Below are positions 24,562-55,836 of a stretch of 64,000 bases of DNA, piece by piece (the first letter of the stretch is position 1; every line of letters starts with the position of its first letter). The notes below the pieces were generated by a model. That model saw nothing but the letters and a program-made list of their open reading frames with translations. It did not search any database and was not told where the DNA came from. The translations under genes and the position numbers were made by a program. This DNA comes from an uncultured virus (IMG/VR IMGVR_UViG_3300012259_000001) (lineage: Duplodnaviria; Heunggongvirae; Uroviricota; Caudoviricetes): positions 1 to 64,000 of IMG/VR virus record IMGVR_UViG_3300012259_000001; one strand, written 5' to 3'.

Positions 24562-24621
24562 TCAAGTGAATAGGATACAAAATCTTGTATCTAATACCCT
24601 TGGATTCTCAGGAGAATCAAC

Positions 24622-24879
24622 ATGAACACTACTCAAGCTCAAGCTGTACTGGAAACTGTTAAGCGTACCGGTCTGAACGACACCATGGCTGCAGAACTCT
24701 ACATGGTTAAAGACGTTCGTGACTTCAAGGTAGCTGGCGTATTCGCCTACCCAGAAGGTCCTGAGTTCGTTGTCATCTCCCAAGGTGAGAACGGTCGTTG
24801 GACCACCAAAGCTGAACTGATGTACGAAGGCGACACCGCCAAGAGCATGGCTGATGACCTCGGTCTCTACCTGCTGTAA
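24622..24879 (+). CDS. Early hypothetical protein
   Basis: 85 aa; AGGAG RBS in hairpin. Confidence 0.8.
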   Translation: MNTTQAQAVLETVKRTGLNDTMAAELYMVKDVRDFKVAGVFAYPEGPEFVVISQGENGRWTTKAELMYEGDTAKSMADDLGLYLL

Positions 24880-24944
24880 GCTACACCCTCTACAATACCA
24901 AGGGTCTTCGGGCCCTACCCCATAAGTTCTAAGGAGAACTAACC

Positions 24945-25100
24945 ATGCGTAACTTCATCCTGTATACCCTGATCGCTCTTGCTTGTGTAGGTACTGTCGT
25001 TCTGGCTGTTAAGACCAATGATAGACTGACTCCAACCCAAGCTTGGGAGCAGAGCAGTAACTTGAAAGCTGAACTGCGTCAGCTTGAAAACAATAAGTAA
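24945..25100 (+). CDS. Early small membrane/secreted protein (51 aa)
   Basis: Not in ORF track; MRNFILYTLIALACVGTVVLAVKTNDR...; AAGGAG RBS in hairpin. Confidence 0.75.
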   Translation: MRNFILYTLIALACVGTVVLAVKTNDRLTPTQAWEQSSNLKAELRQLENNK

Positions 25101-25133
25101 AACAAACCTCACTCAAGTTTAAGGAATACGACC

Positions 25134-25382
25134 ATGACTTTCAACATCATCCGCGCTATCTCTATCGCCGCTGTGATCGGCACCCTGATCTCTCTGGTTG
25201 CTGCTTATAACGTCACCAAAGACCTGACCTACAAGTCGCCTCTGAGCAATTGCTTCGAAGGCTTTTGTGACATGACCCAAACCAGCATCGATGAGAATGG
25301 TTACTTCATTCAGACCACTGCTAAAGTTTGGGTAGGTGGCAAAGTGACAGAACGCAACGCTAAACAAACCCTCGGCTTCTAA
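25134..25382 (+). CDS. Early small membrane protein
   Basis: 82 aa; N-terminal hydrophobic helix; AAGGA RBS. Confidence 0.75.
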   Translation: MTFNIIRAISIAAVIGTLISLVAAYNVTKDLTYKSPLSNCFEGFCDMTQTSIDENGYFIQTTAKVWVGGKVTERNAKQTLGF

Positions 25383-25410
25383 CCAACCCCAGTTCTAAGG
25401 AGAACAACAC

Positions 25411-25767
25411 ATGAACAAGCAGATCGCATTGAACATCGTAGCCAAAATCGTCGCTGACTACAAAGGCAGTGGTAATGGCAGTATCAAACTGAAAGACTTT
25501 GCCTTCGCCGTCAAAGGTGAGGGTGAATTCAAGGTTGAAGAAATTCAGTTGGTTTGGGATTTCAAAGACGTTGCCTACTCCAAGGCCCAAGGTGAATTCA
25601 AAACCTCGGGCACCGCCGTCTTCAAGCTGACCGCCAAGGGCATCGCCCTGACCCACCACAAAGGCAACTGGTCGCTCGGTGAGATCGAGATTAACTCGGT
25701 CGACGAGCTGCAGAACCTGGTCCTTGTGTTGCCAATGGATGAACTGAAAGAGTTCTTCCTGAAGTAA
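25411..25767 (+). CDS. Early hypothetical protein
   Basis: 118 aa; AAGGAG RBS in hairpin. Confidence 0.8.
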   Translation: MNKQIALNIVAKIVADYKGSGNGSIKLKDFAFAVKGEGEFKVEEIQLVWDFKDVAYSKAQGEFKTSGTAVFKLTAKGIALTHHKGNWSLGEIEINSVDELQNLVLVLPMDELKEFFLK

Positions 25768-25829
25768 GACCCCTTAGGTAGGTGCAGAAGCACCTACCCG
25801 CTAACCTCAAGTTCTTAGGAGAACAAACA

Positions 25830-26207
25830 ATGTCCTACACCAGCGAAAACATCAAGCGTCATCACGAAGCCGCCATCGCTAAGATCAAAGCCTGCAATGG
25901 TTTGATTGGGGATGATCACCGTCAGAACGGCATGATCCAAATCACCCATGTCGGCGTGTTCATGCAAAGCGACAAAGCGAAAAACCCAGTCCTCGTCGCG
26001 TTGATCGATGGGGTATTGTTCTGCATCAACCACATCGACATCACCGGAGAGGCACCCACCCTGAGCCGTAACTCGGTGGGCGGAACGGTCGATGCCGTCA
26101 GCCTGAGCATGGAAGAGCGCTGCCAGCGCTACAATGACGACGAAGGTCGGATGGGGAAATTCCTCGAAATCATCACCGTTAAAGACTCTGCTGCTAAAGC
26201 GGCATAA
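25830..26207 (+). CDS. Early hypothetical protein
   Basis: Start placed at ATG 25830 (MSYTSE) after TAGGAG hairpin RBS. Confidence 0.8.
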   Translation: MSYTSENIKRHHEAAIAKIKACNGLIGDDHRQNGMIQITHVGVFMQSDKAKNPVLVALIDGVLFCINHIDITGEAPTLSRNSVGGTVDAVSLSMEERCQRYNDDEGRMGKFLEIITVKDSAAKAA

Positions 26208-26272
26208 CGAAAACAGTGGCGTAGGCGCCTTAGGCGTCTACGTCCAATTTAACCTTAAATAGGAAAAAGAAA

Positions 26273-26497
26273 ATGAAAATGGAAAAAATGTTAACTTTGA
26301 AAGAAATGCGTGTAATCGAAAACTACAAAGAGCTTATCAAAGCCGGCTTGGATAAAGTGGTGGCTCGCACCATCGCCTTGAAAGTCTCGGTTGCTGTGAT
26401 CCTTACAGTCGCTGTGTCGGATTTGGGTGTTCACGTAGAGCTGTACGAAGTAGATCGCCGTGAGGAAAAGACTGTTGTCTTTCGCTTCGTGGCATAA
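26273..26497 (+). CDS. Hypothetical protein
   Basis: 74 aa; AGGA RBS. Confidence 0.65.
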   Translation: MKMEKMLTLKEMRVIENYKELIKAGLDKVVARTIALKVSVAVILTVAVSDLGVHVELYEVDRREEKTVVFRFVA

Positions 26498-26546
26498 AAA
26501 GAAAGGGACTCTCGCCCCTTTCTTTTTTTTTTTGCTTTTATGCCGG
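26491..26546. terminator. Bidirectional terminator between convergent genes
   Basis: AAAAAGAAAGGG...CCCTTTCTTTTT stem with a long T tract; flanked by GGCATAA and TTATGCC. Confidence 0.8.
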
Positions 26547-27782
26547 CGTGTCGCTTTTGATTGCTCGTGATACCACAACACGAGTGGCCAGCGCCATCTT
26601 GATGCAGCGATCGGTCTCATCCGCCAGTGGACTGCGGTAGTACTGGGGGATGTGTTTGGAGATCTTGATCAGCTGTTTGAGGGCGTGGATGTTATCCGAA
26701 GATTTCAACTCACCGGCACTGTAGTCCAGCTTTTGAATCGAGCGCATGACTCGTTGCAAAGCACTGGACATTTTCCGATAAGTTCCCCAACCAGAGATCA
26801 CCAGTTCACAGTAGGCCGCCGAGCACTCCAGCAAGGCCTCTAAATCGCTCTTGGTGAGCTTTGCTGAGTCGGACCGTTGTAGGGGCTTACCACCGCGCTC
26901 GCGCACCACCTGCTTCGTTGCAAGGTCTGCTAGATGGACGTAGTCGTTGCTGATACCCCGAGCCTTCGGAGCATTCTTCTTAACCACGTACAACGACGTG
27001 TTGAAAAGCAACTCCTCGGTTGGAGAGATCTTCTTGGAGAAAGCTTCGATGGGGTGGGTTAGGTTTTGGATTTTGTCCAGGACCGTACGTTTGAAGCCTT
27101 CGTCCGAATCCAAGTCAATTCCCTCAACCAGCTTGTGAAACTCATTGGCAAACGCCAACACTTGAGCCGGTATCACTTCCATCAGGATTTTGGCTTGTGC
27201 CAAATCTTTCTTCAGTGCAGGGAGCAACTCACGAACAGCCTTGCCATCACGGGTAAACGCATTTCCCACGTTCTTCCCCGAGAGAGCAACTTCAAGACTG
27301 CCTTTGATGTCTGCAGCTTTAAGCTTTTGCTTAAGTACATCGGTGCGCTTAAGGCCCGACTTGGCAGTATGAATACTACCGAGTGAGACGTTGGACAACG
27401 CCGTGAGGACACTGGCGAAGTTGTCGTGGTAGGCCTTGCTGGTCATTTGCGCAACACTCTGTAGTGCAGGCAGGACACTGTCTTTGAAGTCTTCGCTGCT
27501 ATAGGTATCACTTTCAAGCGAGGGGAGCGTACCCAGAATACGACCGGTAATGCTCTCCAGCGATTGAATGCGCTCCATGGCCAAGATACCAACGCCGTGG
27601 TTCAACGCACCGGCTTGATCGAGGTTCTCCAGCGTGACTTCCAAATGATCCAATTCATCAACCGTATCGGCCAACTCTTCCATACTTACCAGCCAGTTTT
27701 GGTTGGTGTGTACGATCATGTGCAACTGATCAATGGAGAGGTTGGTGGGGCGTGGGTTGGGGCGCGCCAATTTCTGTAACAT
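26538..27782 (-). CDS. Internal head protein (paralog of 27834..29090)
   Basis: Acidic N-terminal propeptide with SME/AME/SLE sites; alignable to its neighbour (LDSDEGFKRTVLDKIQNLTHP vs YDSSAKFESTVLEKMIKLDHP; LADLATK vs LADLCVK). Confidence 0.7.
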   Translation of the reverse strand: MLQKLARPNPRPTNLSIDQLHMIVHTNQNWLVSMEELADTVDELDHLEVTLENLDQAGALNHGVGILAMERIQSLESITGRILGTLPSLESDTYSSEDFKDSVLPALQSVAQMTSKAYHDNFASVLTALSNVSLGSIHTAKSGLKRTDVLKQKLKAADIKGSLEVALSGKNVGNAFTRDGKAVRELLPALKKDLAQAKILMEVIPAQVLAFANEFHKLVEGIDLDSDEGFKRTVLDKIQNLTHPIEAFSKKISPTEELLFNTSLYVVKKNAPKARGISNDYVHLADLATKQVVRERGGKPLQRSDSAKLTKSDLEALLECSAAYCELVISGWGTYRKMSSALQRVMRSIQKLDYSAGELKSSDNIHALKQLIKISKHIPQYYRSPLADETDRCIKMALATRVVVSRAIKSDTPA

Positions 27783-27833
27783 GGGGATCACCTAAATTAA
27801 AAGCCGGGTAGGGGACTCTACCCGGACGAGGAG

Positions 27834-29090
27834 TTACTTGGACGTGGCGATGGTCCGACTGGCCAAAATGCGAATACCAGGTACCAGGTTCATGATACGG
27901 TTCAGCTCGATGCGATAAGGCGTCTTGGAATAACGGGTCAGACCTCGGGTGAACGACAGGACTTGCTTGAACACCTTCTTGTTGACAGGGTCCAGGCCGT
28001 CGATGTTGTTCATCTTCTTGGTCGAGTTGGCCAGGTTCTTGAACGCGCGGGTCAGTGGAGCAAATTGGGTTTTGGCATCGATGATCAGTTGACAATACGC
28101 GTCGGCGTGATCGAGCATCTTGTCCACTTCATCGGTGGTGAAGTAGAAGTCTTCCAACACACCGCTGTTGATATTCGCCCACGTAAAGACATACTCTTTA
28201 ACATACGTCTTGACGCACAGGTCAGCCAACGCTTGGTGGCGCTTGTCCGAAGAGACCGGCTTAACGCCCCGCCCTTTCTTGATTTCCAGACCGCGGTTAC
28301 CCAACAGGACGTTACCTTCTCCGACCCCCTTACCTTTGAAGACAGTGGAGGGATGATCCAGTTTGATCATCTTTTCCAGTACGGTGGATTCGAATTTCGC
28401 GGACGAGTCGTATACACCGGCCCCGAGGATACTGCGTACGCGCTCCAGGTACACCGCCAAGTCTTTGGGGTACTGGTTGCTGATGTATTTGGCGTACTGA
28501 TAGTCGTTAGCCAAATCACTGACCGGGGCGGTACTGAAGCGACCGTTCAAGGCGAAGAGTTGAGGGAGGGAACTACCAGCCAACGAGGACTTGTGACGCT
28601 TCTCGTTAAGTTCCGGTTTCTTGGCTCGCCATTCTTGACGCAGTTTGTGGATACGGCCTTGTTGGCGCCGCCCCCACCCGTCAGCCGTACTGAACAGCTG
28701 AGCCCATGCATCGATTCCTTGTTGGAAGTCAGCCACGTACAGCTGCTTGATCCGGTTCCACATACCCGAAACCGCTTCCATGGAAACAGCCAGGTAGGCG
28801 TGGGGGTCGTGGGTAGCGTCTTCCAGCGATACGTTGACGGAGTCTACACCCAGTGTGTCACCGAGGTCCTGTAGACGAGAGTGAACCATGAACGTTTCAG
28901 TTTCAGAAACCTTGTCGGCCCCTTGGAGGGTCTCGATGGTATCTTCCAGTTCTTCAAGCTCTTCCATGGTCGCAACCAAGTGCTCGAAGTTATCTTGGAC
29001 GTGGTTGAAATGTTCCAAGGCCACCATCAAAGACTCAGTGCTGTACTGAGGCTTTTTCTGGTCAGCGTTTTTCAAAAGATCGGCAAGCAT
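27834..29090 (-). CDS. Internal head protein
   Basis: 418 aa; propeptide with STE, ALE, SLE, SME motifs typical of gp175-type protease substrates. Confidence 0.7.
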   Translation of the reverse strand: MLADLLKNADQKKPQYSTESLMVALEHFNHVQDNFEHLVATMEELEELEDTIETLQGADKVSETETFMVHSRLQDLGDTLGVDSVNVSLEDATHDPHAYLAVSMEAVSGMWNRIKQLYVADFQQGIDAWAQLFSTADGWGRRQQGRIHKLRQEWRAKKPELNEKRHKSSLAGSSLPQLFALNGRFSTAPVSDLANDYQYAKYISNQYPKDLAVYLERVRSILGAGVYDSSAKFESTVLEKMIKLDHPSTVFKGKGVGEGNVLLGNRGLEIKKGRGVKPVSSDKRHQALADLCVKTYVKEYVFTWANINSGVLEDFYFTTDEVDKMLDHADAYCQLIIDAKTQFAPLTRAFKNLANSTKKMNNIDGLDPVNKKVFKQVLSFTRGLTRYSKTPYRIELNRIMNLVPGIRILASRTIATSK

Positions 29091-29196
29091 GGTACACCTA
29101 TCTAAAAGTGGTTGTAGTTAAGAGACAAGCTCATTAAATAGCGTTGGTACATAACAGCATAAGTGGCAGGCCGAAGCCCGCCACTCAGCCCAGGGG

Positions 29197-30066
29197 TTAG
29201 AGGACAGCCGCAGCTGCGATCTCTTCCATCTGCTCGCTGTAACCGTTGCCGTCTGCACCAGCGGCCTCGACGTCGGCGTCGATTTCGGTGATGAAGGCTT
29301 GACGCAGGTTCTGGTTGGCGCCGGTGAGGGTCATGCGATCCAGGAATTCCTGAGCCAGCAGGTCCACACCTTCACCGACCTGAGTCAGCGCAGTGAACTC
29401 AACGGTGTAATCCGTCTTGTCGCCGCCGGCGGTCAGTTCACGACGACCTTGGATTTCAGCCACGGTGCCGTTCGGACGCATGTTCGTCGACAGCCACGAG
29501 GTCACCACTTTGGAGTGGGTCGGATCGGGTTCGATGAACAGCACAGTCATGCCGGTGTAGTCGGGCAGTAGGTCAACCGGACGGTTGGCGAGCTTGACCA
29601 CACGCGGGTACTTGGTTTCCGGGTCCATGATCAGGTTGAGAGTCCAACCGTTCAGGAAGTTGGCGACCGAGCGACCGTACTTCTCGTTCCAGGTGAACGA
29701 CGGGGTCGAACGCTGGCGGGTGACGTTGGTGATGTCTTGTTGCATCTCACCAGCACCACCGAACGGGTTCTCACTGTGTTCCACCGACAGGGTCTGGTTC
29801 AGCCCTTCGATGGTCAGCGGAGCCAGCTCGACCAGGTTCTTCAGCGTAGCTACCCAGTACTCCGGGTCTTCGAGGTCCTGGAACCCGCGCGGCGCCTCGA
29901 TGAGGATCGCGATCAGGTTACGGCGGATGTACGAAGCGTTCGATACGTAAGCATCGAATACCGGAGCATGGCCCATTTGACCACCCTTACGGATGTCCAC
30001 GGCAGGCGCCTGACCGTACTGGTTGAACCCCTTGTTGTCAAGGAGCGTATCTGCTAGGCGGCTCAT
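29197..30066 (-). CDS. Tail tube protein (phiKZ gp30-like)
   Basis: 289 aa downstream of the sheath; YIRRNLI..LIEAPRGF, WNEKYG, LFIEPDP; highly biased codons. Confidence 0.85.
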   Translation of the reverse strand: MSRLADTLLDNKGFNQYGQAPAVDIRKGGQMGHAPVFDAYVSNASYIRRNLIAILIEAPRGFQDLEDPEYWVATLKNLVELAPLTIEGLNQTLSVEHSENPFGGAGEMQQDITNVTRQRSTPSFTWNEKYGRSVANFLNGWTLNLIMDPETKYPRVVKLANRPVDLLPDYTGMTVLFIEPDPTHSKVVTSWLSTNMRPNGTVAEIQGRRELTAGGDKTDYTVEFTALTQVGEGVDLLAQEFLDRMTLTGANQNLRQAFITEIDADVEAAGADGNGYSEQMEEIAAAAVL

Positions 30067-32120
30067 TGTTCGAGGTCCTCACGACGGCGGGCTACGATGG
30101 TGAACGAGCCCACGGTTTTCATGTTGTTGCCGTACATCACGATGTTGCAACCCCAGCTGAAGCCACGCTGACTGTCGGCTTCGGATACGAAGGTATCCGG
30201 GACGATCACAACGCGGTTATCGAAGCGACCTTTGACGGCTTCTTCGATCAGACGGTTCGAACGGGTGATGAACTGGTTTTCAGTCAGACCGGAAATACCA
30301 GTCAGCTGACGCCAGGTGATTTCAGCAACCTTCTCGAGTTCAACGGCGATCAGCATGTTGAACATGGAGTTCAGAATGCTGGTGTCGTCGTCGTACACGG
30401 TTTGCAGACCAGGGAAGAACTGGCTGCGGCGGTCGAAGTTCTGTACCCAGACCAGACCGGCATCCCAATCGTTGGAGCGAACGTTGGCCTTTTTATAGGT
30501 CGAGTTCACACCGCGGAACATGGTGACTTGGTTGGCCGGAGAGATGTCGAACTTGGCGCGGGACTTCCAGACGCCGTCGCCGGCACCCATGTAAGCCGCA
30601 CACTTATCCGCCAGCTCGATGGTCAGCGGCGTCAGCTGCTTCCACTTGGAGTTGACCAGATAACCGGAATGACCGACAACCATGGCGCGGCAAACGGAGG
30701 TACCGTAGATTTCCGATTCCGGGAACATACGGGCAGCCGTACGCAGCGAAACGGCGATCGAGGATTCTTCCGAGTTGCTGTTCTGCGGCTGCGACACGTC
30801 CTGGGTGGACAGGATCACAGCAATGTCTTTACGACGGCCGAGAACGGTGAGCAACTTCTTCTTGGTTTCCAGGCTGAAACCCGAATCCCAGATGATCGAC
30901 TGCGGGTAGACCGCGCTGTCGAGGAAGTGGTATTCACCTTCACCGTAGTTGGCGCAGATGTCGCCGACCAGACGATCGAAGGTTTCGAAATCCATCGTGC
31001 CGTCAGCACCGCCACGGGCATAATGGGTCGAGTTCTCGTTCAGCAGGATACCACCCGCCGAAGGCCCTTCGATGACCAGACTGTAGTACGGCGTACCGTT
31101 GTAGTCGTGACCGCCGATGAAGTTGACCATGTGCAGGTCGTCTTCGGACTCGGAGACCAGGCCGTGCAGGCTTTCGTTTTCCTGGATCTTGGTCAGCAGG
31201 GCTTCGATGTTGTCGAAGTAGACGTGCTGATCGTTGATCAGACCGATGGTCGGTGGCAGACCGTTGGAGGCCTCTTGGTTCCAGCTCTGGAGCAGGATGT
31301 CATCAACCGACACTTCGGTATCGGTTTTGGCGTTGATCACGCCCGGCTTGTAGGTGAAGTCGATGAACTGGTCACCATACAGGGTTTCCTTCACAACCGG
31401 CAGGCTGTTGATCGAGGGGCGCTCAACCATCGCGAGGCGGTACATGTAGGCACGAGCCGTTTCGATCAGTTCGTCGTTAACCGGCGACGAAGAGTCGATG
31501 GTCGGGGACGACAGACGGATACCGACGAGGTCACCGAACGAACCGTGGGACGAGACACGCCAAGCGTGCAGCGGAACCATGGTCGATTGAGTACCGTCGG
31601 ATTCAGCCACCAGGGTACCTACGCGAGGCTCCAGGGTGTGCAGATCCTGATCTGCTTCCAGACCGCTGATCTCGTAGCGAACGCGGATACCCGGAACGGT
31701 TTGACCGGTCGGAATGCGCTTGCCCTCGGCGTCCAGGAGGAAGCGGCCGTTTTCAGCACGCTGGAAGTCCGGAACGTCATCGGCCACGTAGTCAGCCCAC
31801 AGAACCAGTGCAGCGATGGCTGCGTCTTCGGCCACTACACGCTGAGCAACCATCATGTTGCCGCGACCGTTAACGGTGTTGATCAGCACCGTCTGGTGAG
31901 TAGCGTACTTGGAGCGGTAGTCGAAAGACTCCGCGCCGTAGGTGGAGACAAGACTGTCACCCACGACAACCTGAGGAACCAGAGGACCGCGCTGTGCAAA
32001 CAGAAACACATGCGGCATGTGAGTGGGACGTGCTTCCGGTTGGTAGACCGGAGCGCGACCAGACTCATCCTTGATACCGTTCAGGATGGCGCGAGGGGCA
32101 GCGTTTTTGATTGTGATCAT
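30063..32120 (-). CDS. Tail sheath protein (phiKZ gp29-like)
   Basis: Start at ATG 32120 after GGAG (MITIKNAAPRAILNGIKDES); FAQRGP, WDSGF, TVYDDDTS motifs; about 685 aa. Confidence 0.88.
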   Translation of the reverse strand: MITIKNAAPRAILNGIKDESGRAPVYQPEARPTHMPHVFLFAQRGPLVPQVVVGDSLVSTYGAESFDYRSKYATHQTVLINTVNGRGNMMVAQRVVAEDAAIAALVLWADYVADDVPDFQRAENGRFLLDAEGKRIPTGQTVPGIRVRYEISGLEADQDLHTLEPRVGTLVAESDGTQSTMVPLHAWRVSSHGSFGDLVGIRLSSPTIDSSSPVNDELIETARAYMYRLAMVERPSINSLPVVKETLYGDQFIDFTYKPGVINAKTDTEVSVDDILLQSWNQEASNGLPPTIGLINDQHVYFDNIEALLTKIQENESLHGLVSESEDDLHMVNFIGGHDYNGTPYYSLVIEGPSAGGILLNENSTHYARGGADGTMDFETFDRLVGDICANYGEGEYHFLDSAVYPQSIIWDSGFSLETKKKLLTVLGRRKDIAVILSTQDVSQPQNSNSEESSIAVSLRTAARMFPESEIYGTSVCRAMVVGHSGYLVNSKWKQLTPLTIELADKCAAYMGAGDGVWKSRAKFDISPANQVTMFRGVNSTYKKANVRSNDWDAGLVWVQNFDRRSQFFPGLQTVYDDDTSILNSMFNMLIAVELEKVAEITWRQLTGISGLTENQFITRSNRLIEEAVKGRFDNRVVIVPDTFVSEADSQRGFSWGCNIVMYGNNMKTVGSFTIVARRREDLEQ

Positions 32121-32332
32121 AACAGCTCCCGTGATCAAACGTTGATCATTAATCGCGATTAAAGGACCAAACAAATCTACTCTTCGTCCAAGCCATGGTC
32201 TTATCGGAGGAGAAATAACTTGAATGGTATAGTTGCCGTACACTGATGTAGTACATCATACTATTCCAGCGACGAACTACATACCTAAGTTTAGTAAACT
32301 TTTACGTCCCAGTAAACCAGGAGATTGAATAG

Positions 32333-37547: not shown

Positions 37548-37555
37548 TATATTAC
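37548..37555 (+). promoter_or_regulatory. phiKZ-type early promoter
   Basis: AAAAAAATTTCAGATC-TATATTAC-CCATGTGATTAGG. Confidence 0.85.
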
Positions 37556-37614
37556 CCATGTGATTAGGATACATAAACTCTTTGCTCAGTCGAACCAGTT
37601 CTTAGGAGAACACC

Positions 37615-38025
37615 ATGAATAATGTCAATGTCGTTCGTTATGCTCAGTTGTTAAAGTTAGATTCTTCCAGTACGAGGAACCTCCTGAGCACGATGGTTGG
37701 GCGGGCGGGTCAAGTCCTACAACGCCGTGCATGCATTCTTAGCAAAACCCGAGAAGGTTACTTCATCTTCGGAATTCCTTTCGATCAATACAGCATCATC
37801 TGGGAAGCCGATCGAGAAGAACTGATTGACGAGCCTCACCGCAAGACGTTGGTTAAACGTCTTCATCAGGAACTCAACGACATCGATCGAACCGTTGAAG
37901 ACTTTCATGAAGATCAATTGTGTAAACTCAAATCCATGTCAGCCCAAGACATGGTGCGGGCAGGTCTTTGGACTCGCCAACCCCTAACGCAAGAAATCCA
38001 AGAAGAGGTCGAAGAGGACCTCTGA
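37615..38025 (+). CDS. Early hypothetical protein
   Basis: 136 aa; TAGGAG hairpin RBS. Confidence 0.75.
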   Translation: MNNVNVVRYAQLLKLDSSSTRNLLSTMVGRAGQVLQRRACILSKTREGYFIFGIPFDQYSIIWEADREELIDEPHRKTLVKRLHQELNDIDRTVEDFHEDQLCKLKSMSAQDMVRAGLWTRQPLTQEIQEEVEEDL

Positions 38026-38058
38026 TTCAATCCCCTGTATCCCTAAGGAGGGAACACC

Positions 38059-38220
38059 ATGGCTACTCAAGAAAAGAACCAGAACTTTGCACTGCTGTCG
38101 ATGGAAGAAGCCCTGATGGAGTTTGATGAAGAACTCAATCGTCTGGAGCGTGAACGTGAAGAGTTGGAAACTTTCTGCAACTCCGGTAAATCCGCTATGG
38201 GTTATCAGTTCTACAAATAA
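38059..38220 (+). CDS. Early small acidic coiled-coil protein (53 aa)
   Basis: Not in ORF track; MATQEKNQNFALLSMEEALMEFDEELNRLERE...; AAGGAGG hairpin RBS. Confidence 0.75.
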   Translation: MATQEKNQNFALLSMEEALMEFDEELNRLEREREELETFCNSGKSAMGYQFYK

Positions 38221-38229: not shown

Positions 38230-38517
38230 ATGGACATCGTGAACGTTACCTTCCGACCCAATGTTGGAAAGATGCAAGGGCAAGTGGTTGAACTCAAGCA
38301 ACACGATCAAGTACTAGAACACTTGACACGACTCGAAAAGGCCACTGACGACGCGACGCGCATTGAGGTGGCTGAGGCGTTGGTTGAGTTGGTTCAAGAT
38401 GCAACCCATTACAAAGTAGAACAAGTTCTACTGGAATCTGGGACCGAATATTCAGAGATTCTGTTCTCTGAATTTCGTGCTTGTGGCATTGCCACCTACG
38501 TGGTGGAGCAACTATGA
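38230..38517 (+). CDS. Early hypothetical protein
   Basis: 95 aa; AAGGA RBS. Confidence 0.7.
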   Translation: MDIVNVTFRPNVGKMQGQVVELKQHDQVLEHLTRLEKATDDATRIEVAEALVELVQDATHYKVEQVLLESGTEYSEILFSEFRACGIATYVVEQL

Positions 38518-38858
38518 ACTTGAAATCCAGTTTCAGACAATTGATCACCAGTCGTAAGACAGATAACCAAGAACTGGTATTGTCGTGGGGTGAGATTGTT
38601 TTGCTCTTCACACCCCACTTTACGGCTAGGTTGTTATCTAAACAATTTTCCGTGGTCGATATACAGCTCATGCTGAGTGAGGCGCGCTTGAAGTATAATC
38701 CCTTGTTGGATGAACTACTACAAGAGATGATTGCCGATATTCCCAATCCGGGAAAAGTAATCCCCTTGAAATATCAAGGTCGAAATTGGCTGGCAGCCCT
38801 ATATCGCATGGAGACAAATGAGGGCGTTTGTCTTCGAATGCGGCTGAAGGCACAATGA
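38514..38858 (+). CDS. Hypothetical protein
   Basis: Start at ATG 38514 (ATGA overlap, GGAG RBS). Confidence 0.65.
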   Translation: MNLKSSFRQLITSRKTDNQELVLSWGEIVLLFTPHFTARLLSKQFSVVDIQLMLSEARLKYNPLLDELLQEMIADIPNPGKVIPLKYQGRNWLAALYRMETNEGVCLRMRLKAQ

Positions 38859-45211: not shown

Positions 45212-45215
45212 TGCG

Positions 45216-47198: not shown

Positions 47199-47212
47199 AC
47201 GATGGTCGTTTT

Positions 47213-48024: not shown

Positions 48025-48046
48025 TTTCTTTTTTAGGGGGCTTGTA

Positions 48047-48757: not shown

Positions 48758-48796
48758 AGGCGGCATACAGGGAGGCTCATGCCTCCCTGTATGCTT

Positions 48797-49126
48797 TTAT
48801 GTCATCAGTGTCCAACCACGTGTGGGACGGCGAGCGTAGCACTTCTCCACCATCCGATCCAACCGAGCGTGGGGGATATTGTGGGCGGTTACGCCACCGA
48901 CGCTACCGTCAGTGAATTCATGAAACAGGAAGATAGAGAAGCTTTCTCCTTCTTGTCTAACCTTCCAAGAAAACCAACCAAGGTGAGCATAGATCTGCGT
49001 GTATTGCTTTTTGATCAAGAACCGGCTGCGCTTAACCCCACGAAACTCCTCTTCTCGACCAAAAGGTAGGCGCACGTACTCTTGGTAGTGTTCCCAACGA
49101 TCCGCCCGACTGAAGAGTTTCTTCAT
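48797..49126 (-). CDS. Hypothetical protein
   Basis: 109 aa; ATGA overlap with the upstream gene. Confidence 0.65.
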   Translation of the reverse strand: MKKLFSRADRWEHYQEYVRLPFGREEEFRGVKRSRFLIKKQYTQIYAHLGWFSWKVRQEGESFSIFLFHEFTDGSVGGVTAHNIPHARLDRMVEKCYARRPTRGWTLMT

Positions 49127-50346
49127 GAGTAGTACTCCATGGTAAACGTACGCAGGACGATATACAGTTGCAGACCTGTACGCAGACTCGCTTGAACCGA
49201 ACTGGACTTGGTGGTGGCTGACTTAGAGACGATCTCTTCAGCCAATCCCTTCATCTTGAGGAGGACTGGGTCATTCATCTTCGATGCCATGTACAGGTTT
49301 CGAAGGCGACTGACCAGACTCGAGAGGTTCGATTGGTTGCGGATCAAAGCGCGGTTTTGTGACAAGAACTCAAACGCATGGAGCAGGGTCTCGTCACAGA
49401 GTTCACCGATGTTCTCATGCCGAGCCTTACCATAGTTCGCCGAACAGTACTCCAACACCTCGACCAGAAGTTTCGGAGGCATGGTGTGCATGGCATCATT
49501 GATCACCGACAAAACCTCATTGCGAATGAAGGTATCACGGTCGGTAATGATCGTGTGGATATACCGCTTGTAGTTGCTGATGCTGCGCTGGCGGTCTTTG
49601 AGGATATTCTCCCCATCGATGGCCACCGTACTGCTGGTCGACGAAATGCGTTGCTGATTGTCCTTCAGCTCGATCATTACCGCATACATCTTTTTGACGA
49701 CTTCACGGATACGACCCTGCACGTCTGTAATTAGGTACAAAATTGCATCATCGTCTGTAAAGTCTTTGATCGTCTTGTGATGAATGCCGTTGCGAGCTAT
49801 GATGTCTTGCGAACGAGCAGTAAACAACGCATGCCAGCTACCGTGTTGCTTCAAGGCATACTTCTTGCTCAACGACTCGTAGACCGCTTGGGCCAACTCT
49901 TTGTCGGCTGGGTACTTGAAGTAATGGGCGAAGATGCTGGTGATGAACTTGACCTGAAGCATGTACGCCACATCGATCATGGCTTGTTCTTTCTCACGCA
50001 CCGTCAGCTTACTGGAGGTGTATAGCGCATGGAGCAACCACGCACTGGTGAGGTTCACCACGTCCGAGGTACGTTTGTATTCTTCGTTGATCACTTCCAA
50101 GGAGTAGAGTGATTCTGTCAGGGCGTCATCATCGATGTCCAACACTTCCCCGAACCACGTGTCCCGGTCGGCTTGCAGATAACGGACGACTTCAACCCCG
50201 AGGAGGTTTCCCCCAAAGAACTTGATGTGGTCGTCGTTGCGGTTAATGAAGCTGTGTTTGAAATTGGCCAACCGTTTGACCAACTTACTGTCAATCTCAA
50301 GGTAGGACAATTCCTTCTTGAAGGTGTCCTTGATAGTGGAGGCCAT
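49123..50346 (-). CDS. Conserved jumbo-phage core protein (probably virion-associated)
   Basis: 407 aa; FFGGNLLG motif recalled from phiKZ-like core genes; AGGA RBS. Confidence 0.7.
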   Translation of the reverse strand: MASTIKDTFKKELSYLEIDSKLVKRLANFKHSFINRNDDHIKFFGGNLLGVEVVRYLQADRDTWFGEVLDIDDDALTESLYSLEVINEEYKRTSDVVNLTSAWLLHALYTSSKLTVREKEQAMIDVAYMLQVKFITSIFAHYFKYPADKELAQAVYESLSKKYALKQHGSWHALFTARSQDIIARNGIHHKTIKDFTDDDAILYLITDVQGRIREVVKKMYAVMIELKDNQQRISSTSSTVAIDGENILKDRQRSISNYKRYIHTIITDRDTFIRNEVLSVINDAMHTMPPKLLVEVLEYCSANYGKARHENIGELCDETLLHAFEFLSQNRALIRNQSNLSSLVSRLRNLYMASKMNDPVLLKMKGLAEEIVSKSATTKSSSVQASLRTGLQLYIVLRTFTMEYYS

Positions 50347-50402
50347 GGTTTATGTCCTAAGGCTTGGGAGTCACAGGATACCAAATAAAATATTTTCAAA
50401 TA

Positions 50403-50410
50403 CATATTAC
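50403..50410 (+). promoter_or_regulatory. phiKZ-type early promoter (variant)
   Basis: TTTTCAAATA-CATATTAC-TCAAGGGAATAAG, aligning with 24554. Confidence 0.75.
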
Positions 50411-50469
50411 TCAAGGGAATAAGTTACAAACTCTTATTCATTAACCCTCGTAATCTCAGGAGATTCACA

Positions 50470-50901
50470 ATGACTCATCCCACTATCCGTCAGATCGACA
50501 GCGTCCTGGCCAAGATCGAACGCTTCGTACCATTCGATCCCAAGTGGAATAACGGAACCGGGTATTTCGACCACTTGGTCCATGATGACCTTGAGTTGGA
50601 AGACGGTGAAGTGGTGCGCTTCGTGGATAACATGATGCGTAACGGGATCATCATCGGTAGCCCTCTGGGCAACCTGGTCATATTCGAGCGCCGTGCCCGT
50701 AAGCTCGATAAAGTTCAGCCACACGATGCCGTGATTGTGGTGACCAACCTGCCACGGGAACTACGTTGGATGTACCCTAACGAATTGACCTCCGATGAGT
50801 TCAATACGATCATGGGCATTCCAGGTAACCCTAATCTCGGTAAGCGCATCGAGACCATAGTCAAAGCCGTTACCCAACGCGCTAAGACTGAACAGGCGTA
50901 A
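50470..50901 (+). CDS. Early hypothetical protein
   Basis: 143 aa; CAGGAG hairpin RBS. Confidence 0.8.
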   Translation: MTHPTIRQIDSVLAKIERFVPFDPKWNNGTGYFDHLVHDDLELEDGEVVRFVDNMMRNGIIIGSPLGNLVIFERRARKLDKVQPHDAVIVVTNLPRELRWMYPNELTSDEFNTIMGIPGNPNLGKRIETIVKAVTQRAKTEQA

Positions 50902-50955
50902 TCCCCTCAGGGGTCTTCGGACCCCACCCCACAGCCCTTAGGAGGGCAGGTTCTG

Positions 50956-51213
50956 ATGAAAGAGTTAGAGCAGTTATATGCGATTGAATCCGGAATGGCC
51001 AAGATGTGGTTTGATCTGTTCCGCAGGTTCCCTATGGTTGAAGATGCCGAGCACTATTTCCTTGAGGCCATGAACTGGGGTTGTGCAGCAGCCAGTACTT
51101 TCCAGTCTCTTGGGGAGATGGCAGATCTGTTTACTGCTATGAAGAAGGATCTGGGCGAAGAAGGTTTTGCTGAGCTTCTAAAGACGCTTGACCAAGAAGG
51201 CCCGATGTGGTAA
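50956..51213 (+). CDS. Early hypothetical protein
   Basis: 85 aa; TAGGAGG hairpin RBS. Confidence 0.75.
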   Translation: MKELEQLYAIESGMAKMWFDLFRRFPMVEDAEHYFLEAMNWGCAAASTFQSLGEMADLFTAMKKDLGEEGFAELLKTLDQEGPMW

Positions 51214-51231
51214 CTAAACTTAAACTTGTGA

Positions 51232-51777
51232 GTGATGCCCATGTCTGAAGCTAGCATGAACCAAACTGTTGACGCAGGTCTGATGAACCAAATCGACCAA
51301 GCCCTTGAGAACTTCTCTTTCGCCGAAGAACCTGCAACCAAAGCCAGTTTCGTTGAATTGGGTAACCGTTACCCTGCACCTAGCGCTAAGGAGCGTATCG
51401 AAATGCAACAAGCCACTAGCCGTCCCCTGAGTCACTACATGTTGACCGATGCACTGCGCCCCACCTTCAAGACCGATGCCGTAGGAAGCCTGATCCTGCG
51501 TTTCGATGTCCTGAAGTCTGCACTGCAAGGTAAAGACACCCCAGAGCTGCGCCTGGACCTCTCCAGTCACATCAATGCGATGATGACTTCGGCTCGAGCA
51601 CTGTTGGTGTCTGATGCAGGTCTGATCCGTAAGAACCTGGTTCGCTTGGAAGCTGCGGGTATCAATGTGGCCTTGTGTCCAGAAGAAAGTGGTGACGGAC
51701 ACCTCCTGATCCTCTTTGCTCAGAACGTGGGTTTCAGCCGTAAAGTCTATCTGCGCAAATTCATCACCACAACGTAA
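51232..51777 (+). CDS. Hypothetical protein
   Basis: About 180 aa; exact start uncertain. Confidence 0.7.
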   Translation: MMPMSEASMNQTVDAGLMNQIDQALENFSFAEEPATKASFVELGNRYPAPSAKERIEMQQATSRPLSHYMLTDALRPTFKTDAVGSLILRFDVLKSALQGKDTPELRLDLSSHINAMMTSARALLVSDAGLIRKNLVRLEAAGINVALCPEESGDGHLLILFAQNVGFSRKVYLRKFITTT

Positions 51778-51784
51778 TACCTAT

Positions 51785-51830
51785 GAAGTCGGGTGCATCC
51801 TAAGGGGTGCGCTCGACTCTTCTTTTTTTT
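51785..51830 (+). terminator. Intrinsic terminator
   Basis: AGTCGGGTGCATCC-TAAG-GGGTGCGCTCGACT plus T tract. Confidence 0.7.
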
Positions 51831-51865
51831 ATCCACATTCTTAGCCACTAGCTGAGGTACCGACA

Positions 51866-52354
51866 ATGAGCGTCCGTGACATCTTCCAACTCAGTATGGA
51901 AAATCACGAAGAAAGCGTGGTGGACGACGACAGCGTCGAACATCCTCTCTTCGAGGGCTTCGAGCCTGAACGCAGTGTGATCTTCCATGGCAACATCCAA
52001 TCGGGTGAATGGGAGCAGATCCTCCAGGACTCTTACAAAGAGTTCCGGGTATGGAATCTACCTGGGCGGGGTGTAGAAATCCCTTCGCTGGAAACCATCC
52101 AGCTTCAAGAGCATGCAGCCGAACTCACCGAAGAGTTGTTGAGTGAAGCCACTCAGGTGTATGTACTGCCTGAAGAGGATCTGGGTCAGGCTGTTCAGGA
52201 AGAGTTTCTGAACGCTGCGATGAACAACCCTGAGAACTCGGTGGTGGTCACCAAGCGCCCTGAGGCGCTGGCGGTGGACGCATTGCGACAGAAAGGCATC
52301 GCGGTAGTGACTTCTCTGGAAGATGCTGCCTTGTACGTAGCCACAGCGTGCTAA
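51866..52354 (+). CDS. Acidic protein with head-protease-type sites
   Basis: 162 aa; SME, SLE, SLE motifs; GAGGT RBS. Confidence 0.7.
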   Translation: MSVRDIFQLSMENHEESVVDDDSVEHPLFEGFEPERSVIFHGNIQSGEWEQILQDSYKEFRVWNLPGRGVEIPSLETIQLQEHAAELTEELLSEATQVYVLPEEDLGQAVQEEFLNAAMNNPENSVVVTKRPEALAVDALRQKGIAVVTSLEDAALYVATAC

Positions 52355-52830
52355 GTAGACTGGGCGGGCGGCTTCGGCCGTTGCGCCCGGTTATGCCGGC
52401 GGGCGGCGCGGGGCGGCGGGGCATAGATAAATGTTTGCTTTTTTAGATCCCCTCTGGGGTATCTCTTAGGATTATCTAGTCTTGTTTTCCTGTGTCAGTA
52501 TTTTTTTACATTACTTCGGTATGGATTTGACATAAAAGCGGAAGGAAGGAGTAGTAGCGAAGCGTAAGCGGAGATACTAGGACTGACTGACAGCTAAACC
52601 AATCCCACTCATCCCTACGGGTCGTGGTCTTGGAGCGTAGCGTAAAGGCCATGAGCCTGGGGGAGAGGGGGGCTAAAGAGCAGGGAATCGAAGATTCCCT
52701 TCCTATGCTTTTGAAAAACCTTTTACGTCTCTACTGTTAACTAACCCTATTAAACACAAGCACCCAACCAACGTAACCTCCAGTGGAGTTGGGGTGTAAG
52801 TGAACCAACAACAACGAGCCAACATCCAAC
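52355..52830. other. Long non-coding region, candidate origin/priming or packaging locus
   Basis: No ORF. G-rich tract, AT-rich tract and two stem-loops carrying AGCG(A/T)AGCGTAA. Confidence 0.4.
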
Positions 52831-53160
52831 ATGAAAAACAACGTCTGGAAAGATAACGAAGTCGTCTGTGCACGCTACGCTCAAGCCTTACGGGTCATCC
52901 GTGAGAAAATCGGCGAAAACCCTAGTCGTAACCTGGAGCTTACGGGGCGACTGGAACCTAAGGTACTGGGCGCTCTAGTAGACGTGGTAGGACGTCATCA
53001 TGAAGTCTTGGTACAGTTGGAAGACCCTGAGTTCTTTACGCGTCGGTCTAACCCGACTCCGAGTGCACATCGGTATCAAGCGGTAACGCCTGTGGGAACG
53101 TTCTTGTTTGACTTGGACTTCTCTCAAGCGGCTACCGCTGCTCGTAACTACGTGTGGTAA
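52831..53160 (+). CDS. Hypothetical protein
   Basis: 109 aa followed by a hairpin. Confidence 0.65.
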   Translation: MKNNVWKDNEVVCARYAQALRVIREKIGENPSRNLELTGRLEPKVLGALVDVVGRHHEVLVQLEDPEFFTRRSNPTPSAHRYQAVTPVGTFLFDLDFSQAATAARNYVW

Positions 53161-53251
53161 GTAGAGTCCTGCCTCCCTACGGGGAGGCGGGGCTTTATGC
53201 TCGGGTATCCTATGAAAGAGGATTGGTCTTTTTTTTTTCATGGGGTGGGTA

Positions 53252-53806
53252 ATGAAGCGACGTATTGCGGGTTTGTGGCGACAAGTCCTACCCAAAATCA
53301 AGATAGGGGGCGTTTGGAAGGACGTCAATACCGGTTGGATTAAAGTCAACGGAGTCTTTCGTAAATTTAAGTTTCCGTTGGTTACGCCACCTATGGGTGT
53401 GATCTTTAGAAGTGCGCTCAACACGGGTGTGAATGGCAATGTTTACGAACGACGTTCCTTTATCCGCAGTGGTTGGGGTCCTGCTGTAGGGGGTACTCCC
53501 GGACCTGTATCGGATGGTGCGATTAGCTATCTTGAATTTACCGTCGAAGGCGAGACGTGGTTGATTCGTGGTATTGAGACAGGCAGTGATGTGGTGGGGG
53601 GCGTTGCTTCCTGGAAGTGGGTATCGTTGCAGTTTTTCGGTCGGGTTGATGTAAATAAGTTGGCTCAGGTCATCTACCTCAACGGACACGTTGCCATATA
53701 CAGCGGGCACTACTACGAACCCCAATACGACATTACGTTCATTACGCATGAGTTAATAACCGCTCGCCAGTTTCCTGCAGACGTCCACATCGATTTAAAA
53801 TTCTAA
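53252..53806 (+). CDS. Trp-repeat N-terminal family protein 6
   Basis: Start at ATG 53252; MKRRIAGLW...KIGGVW...KVNGVF. Confidence 0.7.
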   Translation: MKRRIAGLWRQVLPKIKIGGVWKDVNTGWIKVNGVFRKFKFPLVTPPMGVIFRSALNTGVNGNVYERRSFIRSGWGPAVGGTPGPVSDGAISYLEFTVEGETWLIRGIETGSDVVGGVASWKWVSLQFFGRVDVNKLAQVIYLNGHVAIYSGHYYEPQYDITFITHELITARQFPADVHIDLKF

Positions 53807-53846
53807 GACAGCATACGGCGAGGGTTACCCCTCGCCGGTTATGCCG

Positions 53847-54602
53847 TTATTGGATCGAGAGGAACTCAGAGGCAGAGAAGACCTTACGGTAAAGGTTAAA
53901 CTTGACCAATGATTCAGCCAAGCGATACCCTGCATACTTGAGTAGGCTGTTTAACGCCTCATCCTCTGTCCTGACCAGTACCTGATTGATCCTGACTGAA
54001 TTCAGCAAAGTACTGCCTACGTGAATGTAGTCTGCCTCCGGGTTCACATTCAAAGACACGAAGTCATTGTGTAAAGTGGTGGTGATCAACAGGCCTACGG
54101 GTTGTTCGTTTTGATACGCAAAGGTGTATTGGTGAGGAACGTCCGAGTAGTTGATAGCACCCATCTGTGGGAGGTTGTAAACGATCCCTAGAGGCTCTAG
54201 GAAGGCTTTAGCTTGATCTAAGGTAGCTCGACCTACCGTGATGGGCGAATCGCTCTCCAGAGACACCCTGTAGCGTTTGAGCCACTCTCTAGGAATGATC
54301 CGTACCGAACAGGTAGTGCGTTTTTGTTCGATCAGCTTACAGAAGCGGTGAAAGCCATCGAGAATCACCCACCCGAACCGAGGTTCTTCGGTGATGATGA
54401 TTGGGTATCGGGTATCAGCCTCTTTCAAACGGATGGGGTCTGGTTCCCCGAAACGTAAGTTCCATTCCAATTTTTTGGTATGGACTTGTTTGACAGGTAA
54501 CTTCGCAGCATCGGCTAGTAGAGGATCGAGTTGGTAATCTTTGTCCATATGACGGAAGGTGCTATCGGGACCTTCTTGATACGGGGGTTTTTCAAGAGTC
54601 AT
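53847..54602 (-). CDS. ParB/Srx-like domain fused to a GNAT-like domain
   Basis: YPIII...ILDGFHR; linker VSLES; C-half FAY....PVGLL...SLNVNP...HVGSTLL...LLKYAGY. Confidence 0.55.
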   Translation of the reverse strand: MTLEKPPYQEGPDSTFRHMDKDYQLDPLLADAAKLPVKQVHTKKLEWNLRFGEPDPIRLKEADTRYPIIITEEPRFGWVILDGFHRFCKLIEQKRTTCSVRIIPREWLKRYRVSLESDSPITVGRATLDQAKAFLEPLGIVYNLPQMGAINYSDVPHQYTFAYQNEQPVGLLITTTLHNDFVSLNVNPEADYIHVGSTLLNSVRINQVLVRTEDEALNSLLKYAGYRLAESLVKFNLYRKVFSASEFLSIQ

Positions 54603-54647
54603 AAAGAAATCCTTACGAGGAGGGGACCGGCCCCTCCTCTGGTTGAG

Positions 54648-55463
54648 TTACCAACGCCCGCCGGTCAAGAGACCCAAATGGCGTTTGTGTTGTTCCGGGT
54701 CAGCCATGAGCGAAATTTTTCGCCAGCGCTCATCGAACATGGTTTGGTATTGTTCCATGGCATCGGAATACCCGTCCACCACTTCACGGAACCGACCTAA
54801 GGCCATACCACCCGAGAGTTGGGCTTGATCCATGCTGATATTGATGTTGTTGTAGATGTAGCCCTTACAGGCCAACACACACATTTTACCAAACACCAAA
54901 ATGGCTGCAGGTAAGAAACCATTGAGTTCAGCATCGTTCTCAACCACACACCGCAGGTACGGATTGCCTGGCATGGCAATGTTCTCTCGCACCAGTACGG
55001 TGTTTTCACCGATCAACTCAATGTTGGCGGTAGAGACAATTGGAATCGGGAGGCGTGACTGCAACACCCCTTGGGCTTTGTCCAATAACGCAGAGCGGCC
55101 TTGAAGACCTAGGTTCATCGACCCTGCGATACCGCCATCACCGAAGGTTATATGGAGAACACGGACGATACTGCGTTGTTGCGTGAGGTGCTTCGGCACC
55201 CGATAAACGAGGTTGTACGAGTTGACGTACTCGGGACGTACTGAGCCAAGCGGGACAGTGACTTCAGTACCACCCACAAGATGACAATCCGGCAAAACAA
55301 TTCCATCGATCACAGCCTCACGAATGCGTTGATCCAACGACAAAGGTTGGAAGTTATGACGTCCACCGAAGGCAGACATGTTTTGGGTTAAGAACGTACG
55401 TTCCAGGATCTCTTTGGGGATACTGGTTCGAATGTCCTTTAGAGCTTTTTGAATGGCGTTCAT
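54648..55463 (-). CDS. Conserved jumbo-phage core protein
   Basis: 271 aa (MNAIQKALKDIRTSIPKEIL); position before PhuZ as recalled for phiKZ-like phages. Confidence 0.7.
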   Translation of the reverse strand: MNAIQKALKDIRTSIPKEILERTFLTQNMSAFGGRHNFQPLSLDQRIREAVIDGIVLPDCHLVGGTEVTVPLGSVRPEYVNSYNLVYRVPKHLTQQRSIVRVLHITFGDGGIAGSMNLGLQGRSALLDKAQGVLQSRLPIPIVSTANIELIGENTVLVRENIAMPGNPYLRCVVENDAELNGFLPAAILVFGKMCVLACKGYIYNNINISMDQAQLSGGMALGRFREVVDGYSDAMEQYQTMFDERWRKISLMADPEQHKRHLGLLTGGRW

Positions 55464-55550
55464 AGTTAAGGTCCTACGTTAGTTTCCCCTTCTATAAAAT
55501 TGCGGGTAAGTCATAGCCTTATTGGAAAATAATTCAGGTGTATACTATCT

Positions 55551-55805
55551 GTGGGAAGTAATACCCAGCCTTCAATCGATTGGAGCACTATCATGTTCAA
55601 ATGGATTAACCCTGCACATTGGGGAAAGCGCGCAGCACATGCAGTCAAACGTTGGGAGAACCGTCGTAAGGCGGAGCAGTTCTTTCAACAGGCCGACCTG
55701 ATGGTTATTGAAGCTGACAGTCATCGCGAAGGTCCGCTTAAAGATGCCTGTATGAAAAAAGCCCTCGAGTTGGCTAACAAGGCCTTTGCCCTCTGCGATA
55801 AATAA
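55551..55805 (+). CDS. Hypothetical protein
   Basis: Likely start at ATG 55593 (MFKWIN) after GGAG. Confidence 0.65.
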   Translation: MGSNTQPSIDWSTIMFKWINPAHWGKRAAHAVKRWENRRKAEQFFQQADLMVIEADSHREGPLKDACMKKALELANKAFALCDK

Positions 55806-55836
55806 GCCACCCCCAGCAATTCTAAGGAGAATGAAG

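Follow-up and report, generated by a model that had tools for sequence, protein, structure and literature searches.

How is translation started on a set of small phage genes whose Shine-Dalgarno sequence (SD) is itself part of a predicted hairpin? The question is raised by a 128,176-base contig of an uncultured virus (IMG/VR record IMGVR_UViG_3300012259_000001, here G000; 51% G+C), the first half of which, 64,000 nucleotides (nt) long, was analysed and is called the window. Upstream of several of its open reading frames (ORFs), a short arm is predicted to pair with the AG that ends an AGGAG and to leave the bases NAGG in a four-base loop. The original prediction, made from the letters of the window, placed nine such hairpins on SDs; all nine are present, each 3 to 8 nt 5' of an ATG, and a tenth had been missed. 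It took them for an operator coordinating the translation or shut-off of early mRNAs, with CsrA/RsmA and T4 RegB as known precedents. Of this proposal, a selected RNA structure on the SD of likely early genes stands, to judge from sequence comparison, and CsrA and RegB as its readers are not supported.

The arrangement is far more frequent than shuffled SD contexts produce, a comparison that the prediction had suggested. We applied a register test, in which every AGGAG followed by an ATG opening 40 codons is considered and the upstream halves are swapped 500 times. In G000, 14 of the 28 sites have a stem of at least 5 base pairs (bp) round the NAGG loop, against a mean of 2.1 and a maximum of 6 after swapping, and no loop position other than NAGG is used. 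A version of the test based on gene calls gave 14 of 69 for 1.06 expected. The claim that the outer stem varies with full compensation was borne out on 19 aligned sites: pairs 3, 4 and 5 differ on both sides in 6, 6 and 7 rows, respectively, and covariation reaches 0.53, compared with 0.15 after shuffling (0 of 500 shuffles as high) and at most 0.13 after sliding. The sixth stem position is unpaired in 16 of the 19. A covariance-model search, which used stricter filters on named records, agreed with the script results.

Could the element be a palindrome or cruciform in DNA instead? Most stems are indeed perfect inverted repeats. Among the 25 single imperfect outer pairs, however, 9 are G.U or U.G (G.T or T.G in DNA) and none is A.C or C.A, and the position of the element tracks the start codon, not the promoter. 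When pair 3 of one pattern was varied throughout IMG/VR, U-A, C-G and U.G were found in approximately 440, 290 and 330 stretches (estimates from part scans of a redundant collection), C-A in 42, and a second non-pairing control in 109. Pairing variants outnumber C-A seven- to tenfold (odds ratio of about 9), and therefore the element acts as RNA; a DNA palindrome is hardly credible. Orthologous genes, moreover, keep the fold despite full replacement of the stem, as at position 256376 of phage DT01 compared with its counterparts in genomes G014 and G005, and orthologues also exchange stem and loop size with the fold retained. The substitution patterns thus identify the element as an RNA structure under selection.

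The hairpins of the window and the promoter motifs that accompany them are:

24554..24561, plus strand: early-type promoter motif TATATTAC with an A-rich run upstream; heads the operon 24622-26497
24603..24618, plus strand: SD hairpin 1, GATTCT-CAGG-AGAATC, 5' of ORF 24622-24879 (85 amino acids (aa), without a PHROG family)
24925..24940, plus strand: SD hairpin 2, AGTTCT-AAGG-AGAACT, 5' of ORF 24945-25100 (51 aa)
25392..25405, plus strand: SD hairpin 3, GTTCT-AAGG-AGAAC, 5' of ORF 25411-25767 (118 aa); kept at the orthologue in genome G003
25811..25824, plus strand: SD hairpin 4, GTTCT-TAGG-AGAAC, 5' of ORF 25830-26207 (125 aa); outside the minimum-energy fold of its leader
37548..37555, plus strand: early-type promoter motif TATATTAC
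37598..37611, plus strand: SD hairpin 5, GTTCT-TAGG-AGAAC, 5' of ORF 37615-38025 (136 aa)
38040..38053, plus strand: SD hairpin 6, TCCCT-AAGG-AGGGA, 5' of ORF 38059-38220 (53 aa)
50403..50410, plus strand: early-type promoter motif CATATTAC
50452..50465, plus strand: SD hairpin 7, AATCT-CAGG-AGATT, 5' of ORF 50470-50901 (143 aa)
50934..50947, plus strand: SD hairpin 8, GCCCT-TAGG-AGGGC, 5' of ORF 50956-51213 (85 aa)
51383..51396, plus strand: SD hairpin 10, the one missed at first, GCGCT-AAGG-AGCGT, 5' of ORF 51403-51777 (124 aa)
55541..55548, plus strand: likely promoter variant TATACTAT after an A-rich run, putatively heading ORFs 55593-55805 and 55837-56436 and the PhuZ gene
55819..55832, plus strand: SD hairpin 9, ATTCT-AAGG-AGAAT, 5' of ORF 55837-56436 (199 aa, phrog_3921)

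Nine of these ten genes have no PHROG family; the remaining one, behind hairpin 9, lies just upstream of the PhuZ tubulin gene (56565-57545). The outer pair of hairpin 10 is G.U in the window and G-C in G003. Hairpin 7 is the weakest, at -0.6 kcal/mol alone, and lies outside the minimum-energy fold of its leader; the hairpin is part of that fold in only 7 of the 10 leaders. Six further hairpins, one with an AGGG loop, lie in the second half of G000, making 16 in all. Outside the window, the homologues of the core genes gp68 and gp71-73 also carry the hairpin, and their orthologues in more distant phages lack it. A decayed copy, with two pairs round AAGG followed by a mismatch, is seen at 25115-25133 in the first early operon, 5' of the ORF that begins at 25134. 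Early leaders also open with a shared GTGAATAGGA-like stretch about 8 to 10 nt past the promoter motif, often followed by a 5' hairpin; it is found at 24562-24594, behind the motifs at 37548 and 50403, at 163832 in G005, and in several other operons of relatives.

Which genes carry the hairpin? The promoter motif of the window resembles what we take to be the exact early promoter consensus of phiKZ. In G000, the hairpin is present at 13 of the 33 genes lying within 2.5 kb behind an A-rich (T/C)ATATTA(C/T) site and at 2 of the 110 others; in G003, the corresponding figures are 9 of 37 and 3 of 212. The element is therefore not equally common elsewhere, and this holds when only genes with AGGAG or a hairpin are compared (13 of 16 near promoters, 2 of 11 others; p = 0.002). 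Eight of the nine hairpins first claimed do lie within 2.5 kb behind a (T/C)ATATTAC promoter, as had been stated, and the ninth (55819) follows the TATACTAT variant at 55541. The association is partial, since 20 of the 33 promoter-near genes of G000 have no hairpin. The further claim, that structural genes lack it, is true of all eight clear virion or packaging genes of the window and says little, as none of these has an AGGAG either. AT-rich -10 motifs 5' of early operons are the promoters of the virion RNA polymerase (vRNAP) of jumbo phages (PMC7598289). The hairpin genes are likely to be an early class, 'early' resting here on the promoter motif.

Beyond G000, the register test was positive, above every shuffle, in G003 (13/38), G005 (9/70), DT01 (8/63), G010 (10/63), G012 (10/47), G014 (5/59), phage FLC9 (5/87, null 0.7) and part of G018 (7/27), and negative in G016 (2/44) and G015 (1/43). 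It was also positive in G008 (7/65, null 0.9), which shares only 1 to 4 proteins with each phiKZ-like genome and has Erwinia and Dickeya phages as nearest named records; sigma70-like sites precede its hairpin cluster (7, versus 2.5 in shuffles). Five further small contigs, chosen because they had a match, gave 4/5, 3/4, 2/5, 1/3 and 0/2 sites; their ORFs had no match in the jumbo phage proteomes used, and one contig has a WhiB gene. The hairpin is thus spread over unrelated phages, with differing stems, and is patchy within the phiKZ-like family. In a quick tree of the large RNA polymerase subunit, the hairpin label needs 2 changes, and 103 of 500 shuffles were as low, so that we make no claim as to origin. 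At 685-1850 of the small contig G027 (L875), the leaders of five small genes in tandem are nearly identical over 40 nt and consist of a GAAA-loop hairpin followed by the SD hairpin. In phage SPN3US, CT-NN-AGGAG recurs at 15 starts, in many cases with TAT after it; there is no stem pairing, and the start motif is one of sequence only.

In cellular genomes the pattern is sporadic. A sample of 201 Pseudomonas genomes gave 23 matches, never two per genome, 21 of them paired and mostly on the same few genes. The bacterial collection as a whole yielded about 1200 stretches in 596 billion bases, a figure that has no matched control and by arithmetic is near chance. Among the bacterial matches, for which 95 ORFs were scanned, the genes are varied and include those for L33, L19, a light-harvesting subunit and flagellin, all abundant proteins; one match lies 5' of an apparent prophage tail gene and is a case against a strictly early use. 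In 9 of the 201 Pseudomonas genomes the hairpin sits on the start of rpmG (L33), with the stop codon of the upstream ORF inside it (L877:1501-1520), possibly as a translational coupling element.

The anatomy of the element was examined on 90 sites from ten genomes. The C-U/A-G pairs are present in all 90, and in the conserved register U is always the partner of the A of GGA; the first loop base is free (A46, U19, G17, C8). The stem is 5 bp long at 59 sites, 6 bp at 26 and 7 to 8 bp at 5, and its outer triplets are of 30 different kinds. The core CT-[NAGG]-AG, claimed to be invariant, is so as regards these two pairs, whereas rare variants exist (U.G at pair 1, U-A at pair 2, an NGGG loop) and the loop size is flexible, as in G014, where the same stem closes a five-base NNAGG loop at 8 sites. 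This genome, a DT01 relative, mostly uses the five-base loop, and G013 has the same variant; in 20 named phages the five-base-loop pattern showed no enrichment, as judged by eye. Over 15 nt upstream, G falls to 10% and C rises to 53% at -11 to -8. The predicted C-rich tract was recovered and can be taken as part of the motif, because CCC occurs within 15 nt at 44 of the 90 sites compared with 80 of 376 other AGGA genes. Two other candidate components were rejected: an upstream hairpin is not enriched (58/90 versus 95/150), and a pseudoknot between the C tract and the loop would have its full complement at only 4 of the 90 sites.

According to folding predictions, the stems are weak: the median energy is -4.4 kcal/mol, 78 of the 90 are weaker than -6 kcal/mol, and 89 are weaker than the duplex of SD and anti-SD. 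Stem strength increases with SD strength (r = 0.47). The predicted probability of being unpaired is 0.74 for AGG, dropping to 0.36 if the five bases of the arm are shuffled (60 of the 90 sites), and 0.50 versus 0.37 for the whole AGGAG; for the AG it is 0.12, against 0.33 at other sites. The 12 nt upstream are predicted to be more open than at other AGGAG sites (0.61 versus 0.44).

We favour, with middling confidence, the view that this predicted 5 to 6 bp hairpin on a strong SD is a cis-acting start-site design whose reader is the 30S subunit of the host. Pairing with the short arm would sequester the AG of AGGAG while AGG stays exposed in the loop, and the adjoining G-poor, C/A-rich single-stranded tract would serve as a standby site for 30S loading. 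Duplex formation with the 16S anti-SD is predicted to start at the loop and then to push the weak stem apart. In phages of about 50% G+C, small early genes would in this way be initiated rapidly whatever their sequence context, and no dedicated phage regulator would be needed. We prefer this design because of the predicted open AGG, the open upstream tract and a published effect of standby tails: in E. coli, translation from a structured start site increases when a C/A tail precedes it as a ribosome standby site, and a weaker stem augments this effect (PMC5934652). Further points in favour are that the fixed letters coincide with the SD and its partner, that loop size is flexible, that the stems are weak, that G008 and small unrelated contigs have the same element, and that the identical hairpin stands before some bacterial genes for abundant proteins. 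The G+C content also fits, whole genomes that are positive having 49 to 56% G+C and negative ones 37 to 48%.

Several observations weigh against the design. An SD that is paired normally initiates less well, by a factor of ten for every 1.4 kcal/mol in the MS2 case (PMC5934652). The gain in AGG accessibility is itself a folding prediction, and since shuffled arms remain pyrimidine-rich, the control differs from having no arm. Pair 2 is never U.G (outer stems are found at 0 of 49 such sites), pair 5 is G-C at 58 of the 90 sites, and CC lies 1 to 4 nt 5' of the stem at 63, three features that would also fit a protein reading the shape. A general enhancer should also be commoner. T7 and phiKZ express early genes strongly without the hairpin, and the register test was negative in T7 (0/29) as well as in phiKZ (0/42), 201phi2-1 (0/55, first 300 kb) and PCH45 (0/33); E. 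coli K-12 has it at 1 of 39 sites only. A pattern search of 22 named phages (about three quarters of sites, counted by eye, one duplicate row dropped) gave, among the matches listed, 5 of 9 in FLC9 and 7 of 71 in the other 21, where the hairpin is thus rare. Finally, the G027 locus, at 34% G+C with 4 of 5 sites, runs counter to the G+C trend.

Alternatively, the hairpin may be an operator or cut site at which a phage-encoded factor, be it a protein, a RegB-like nuclease or a small RNA, switches early translation on or off as a class, a possible but doubtful explanation. It would account for the strong early-class bias and the patchy spread over the family, and the fixed geometry and CC tract look like recognition features. 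As in RegB targets, GGAG is present in the SD of likely early genes, and at least 9 of the 11 letters of the RegB consensus GGAGRAYARAA are matched at 44 of 90 hairpin sites compared with 46 of 480 other AGGAG sites, the site being predicted to be paired. The RegB cut position, GG/AG, coincides with the loop-stem junction, and one artificial RegB substrate has its last G paired (PMC1702504); natural RegB sites, however, are single-stranded, and structure protects them (PMC1702504, PMC3014915). RegB itself (PF10715) was found in none of five hairpin-bearing phage genomes at E ≤ 1, a search that could miss a distant RelE-fold nuclease. The majority of the proteins in these phages cannot be assigned to a known family, and a Pfam search of 150 of the 184 listed small proteins of G003 revealed no known RNA regulator. 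Only some of the hairpin-positive lineages have an SNase homologue, and we found no small protein common to G008 and all positive lineages. The best co-occurring ORF (57556-57756), directly 3' of PhuZ, encodes 66 aa that include two CxxC pairs and a WH motif, and has no Pfam family. It is also present in G003, G005, G010, G012, G014, DT01, Goslar, LucasX, RTH11 and Xoo-sp14 and was not found in phiKZ, 201phi2-1 or PCH45; we rejected it as reader, as Goslar, LucasX and Xoo-sp14 have it without hairpin enrichment and G008 lacks it. Nor did ten genomes contain a conserved RNA with an anti-SD loop, only scattered, unshared CUCCU loops (one motif, simple loop filter). The 'invariant core', for its part, needs no protein, because U-N-A-G-G-A-G is the SD and C-U its partner; conservation by itself is no proof of a protein reader. 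Tentatively, hairpin and CC tract may together be a mark recognised by its structure, with more than one origin among large phages, that a phage or host factor reads for the selective translation or the collective shut-off of early mRNAs; equally tentatively, jumbo phages, nucleus-forming ones and others, would then have an equivalent of T4 RegA/RegB that is based on structure.

Host CsrA/RsmA controlling phage early genes directly is very improbable. An AGGAG near a short hairpin loop over the SD is what such a site would offer, and both DT01 and the named relatives of G008 infect Gammaproteobacteria; CsrA is present in 3 of 3 Pseudomonas genomes. The CsrA consensus obtained by SELEX is RUACARGGAUGU, with GGA single-stranded in a six-base loop (PMC7652899). 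The hairpins, by contrast, have NAGG or NNAGG loops with the A of GGA paired, not an ARGGAU hexaloop with AC/GU pairs. Moreover FLC9, recorded from Burkholderia glumae, carries the hairpin, and CsrA (PF02599) was above cut-off in none of 61 sampled genomes of the Burkholderiaceae, the family of a Cupriavidus genome, a sample in which B. glumae itself was not searched; CsrA was found in none of the five phage genomes searched. The misfit of the loop and the FLC9 host family together make CsrA an unlikely host reader. Conversely, the arm might be a shield that puts the GG/AG bond and the A of GGA out of reach of host or competitor factors directed against strong SDs, such as CsrA/RsmA and RegB-like or toxin RNases, and yet be weak enough for ribosomes. 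CsrA requires a single-stranded GGA (PMC7652899) and RegB is blocked by structure (PMC1702504, PMC3014915), the AG is predicted to be mostly paired, and only strong AGGAG sites carry the hairpin. We nevertheless consider such protection unlikely, given FLC9, the absence of the hairpin from the Pseudomonas phages phiKZ and 201phi2-1, and the poor protection that stems of -1 to -3 kcal/mol would afford. Still less probable is that the hairpin lowers or delays translation from a very strong SD before possibly harmful early proteins. SD pairing is generally inhibitory (PMC5934652), and stem strength does follow SD strength, but a fixed register would not be needed, a weaker SD would be a simpler route to the same effect, and the arm is predicted to raise AGG exposure.

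How does the element compare with known systems? Among published elements, the closest in kind is the start-associated sequence (SAS) of cluster K mycobacteriophages, a fixed 13-bp sequence described without structure and with function unknown (PMC3203893). Like the hairpin, it is repeated on the SDs of some phage genes only, directly before starts, in one orientation and rare in the host (PMC3203893); by our reading, the ends of its consensus could pair round the SD. The SAS also has an extended form with 17-bp inverted repeats (PMC3203893), whereas a general test for upstream hairpins showed no enrichment here. The stem letters here, in contrast, show compensatory variation, and unrelated phages carry the element as well. 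The target hairpins of CsrA/RsmA are likewise short, over the SD and with GG in the loop (PMC7652899), whereas the loops here have four or five bases ending in GG, with the A of GGA paired and without the ACA..GU consensus. T4 RegB/S1 sites resemble ours in having GGAG in early SDs, and the downstream letters here often fit GGAGRAYA (PMC1702504, PMC3014915), but those sites are single-stranded and depend on the nuclease, whereas stems with unrelated letters are equally kept here. A start site of the MS2 coat type also has a hairpin over the SD, preceded upstream by an unstructured tail on which the 30S subunit loads; the MS2 stem, of about -10 kcal/mol, covers SD and start codon of one gene (PMC5934652), unlike the present hairpin of about -4 kcal/mol, which does not extend to the AUG and recurs in a class of genes. 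The T4 RegA operator is unstructured, A+U-rich and includes the AUG (PMC3014915), while ours are structured, have C-rich sequence upstream and stop short of the AUG. Rfam gave no match at the gathering threshold in the window and five sub-threshold ones (E 1.8 to 7.1) in 24450-26300. In the open-licence literature, without supplements, we found no published description, the DT01 paper contains none of the relevant terms, and PMC13443453 none of those looked for in it; the element is undescribed in the sources searched.

G000 is a phiKZ-like nucleus-forming jumbo phage, with a shell homologue, PhuZ and multisubunit RNA polymerases; we assume that such phages correspond to the Chimalliviridae. 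The window encodes beta subunits of multisubunit RNA polymerase, PhuZ, a tail sheath, terminase and a phiKZ-type tail fibre, and its polymerase region matches RP12, FLC9, LucasX and relatives at 64 to 70%. Homologues of PHIKZ054, 068 and 071-074 lie in the second half of G000, that of PHIKZ054 (gp54, presumably the shell protein) at 68707-70821 (E 8e-33). G001 is a near copy of G000 (mostly 92 to 98%), and G003 a complete relative with about 80% protein identity; the early operon of the window had no blastn match among named phages. Other features were noted in passing. A 125-aa ORF just 5' of the terminase gene (38481-38858) partially matches the RNA polymerase beta-subunit family phrog_2987 (E 2e-9), and a homing endonuclease-like ORF (8994-9653) lies immediately 5' of the RNA polymerase genes. 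ARAGORN calls a tRNA-Phe at 58667-58759, whose 93 nt are long for a tRNA-Phe and which may be a false call or a variant. In G003, a reverse-strand cluster of about 15 genes at 103,000-115,000 includes 2-oxoglutarate (2OG)-Fe(II) oxygenases and a cupin; it is common to G001, G005, G012, G014 and DT01 and was not found in phiKZ, 201phi2-1 or PCH45.

To our knowledge, early mRNAs are the only phage nucleic acid that nucleus-forming phages expose in the cytoplasm. This 14-nt element gives a direct handle on the control of their translation in jumbo phages, as well as flagging likely early genes without a promoter model. The hairpin is present in DT01, a cultured phage of P. aeruginosa, but not in phiKZ, and four base changes would separate the hypotheses. 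If the hairpin does present the SD to the ribosome, it would contradict the rule that pairing over the SD only represses, and expression work would gain a start site that is both compact and context-proof. An operator would instead point to a new regulon and to the factor that governs it.

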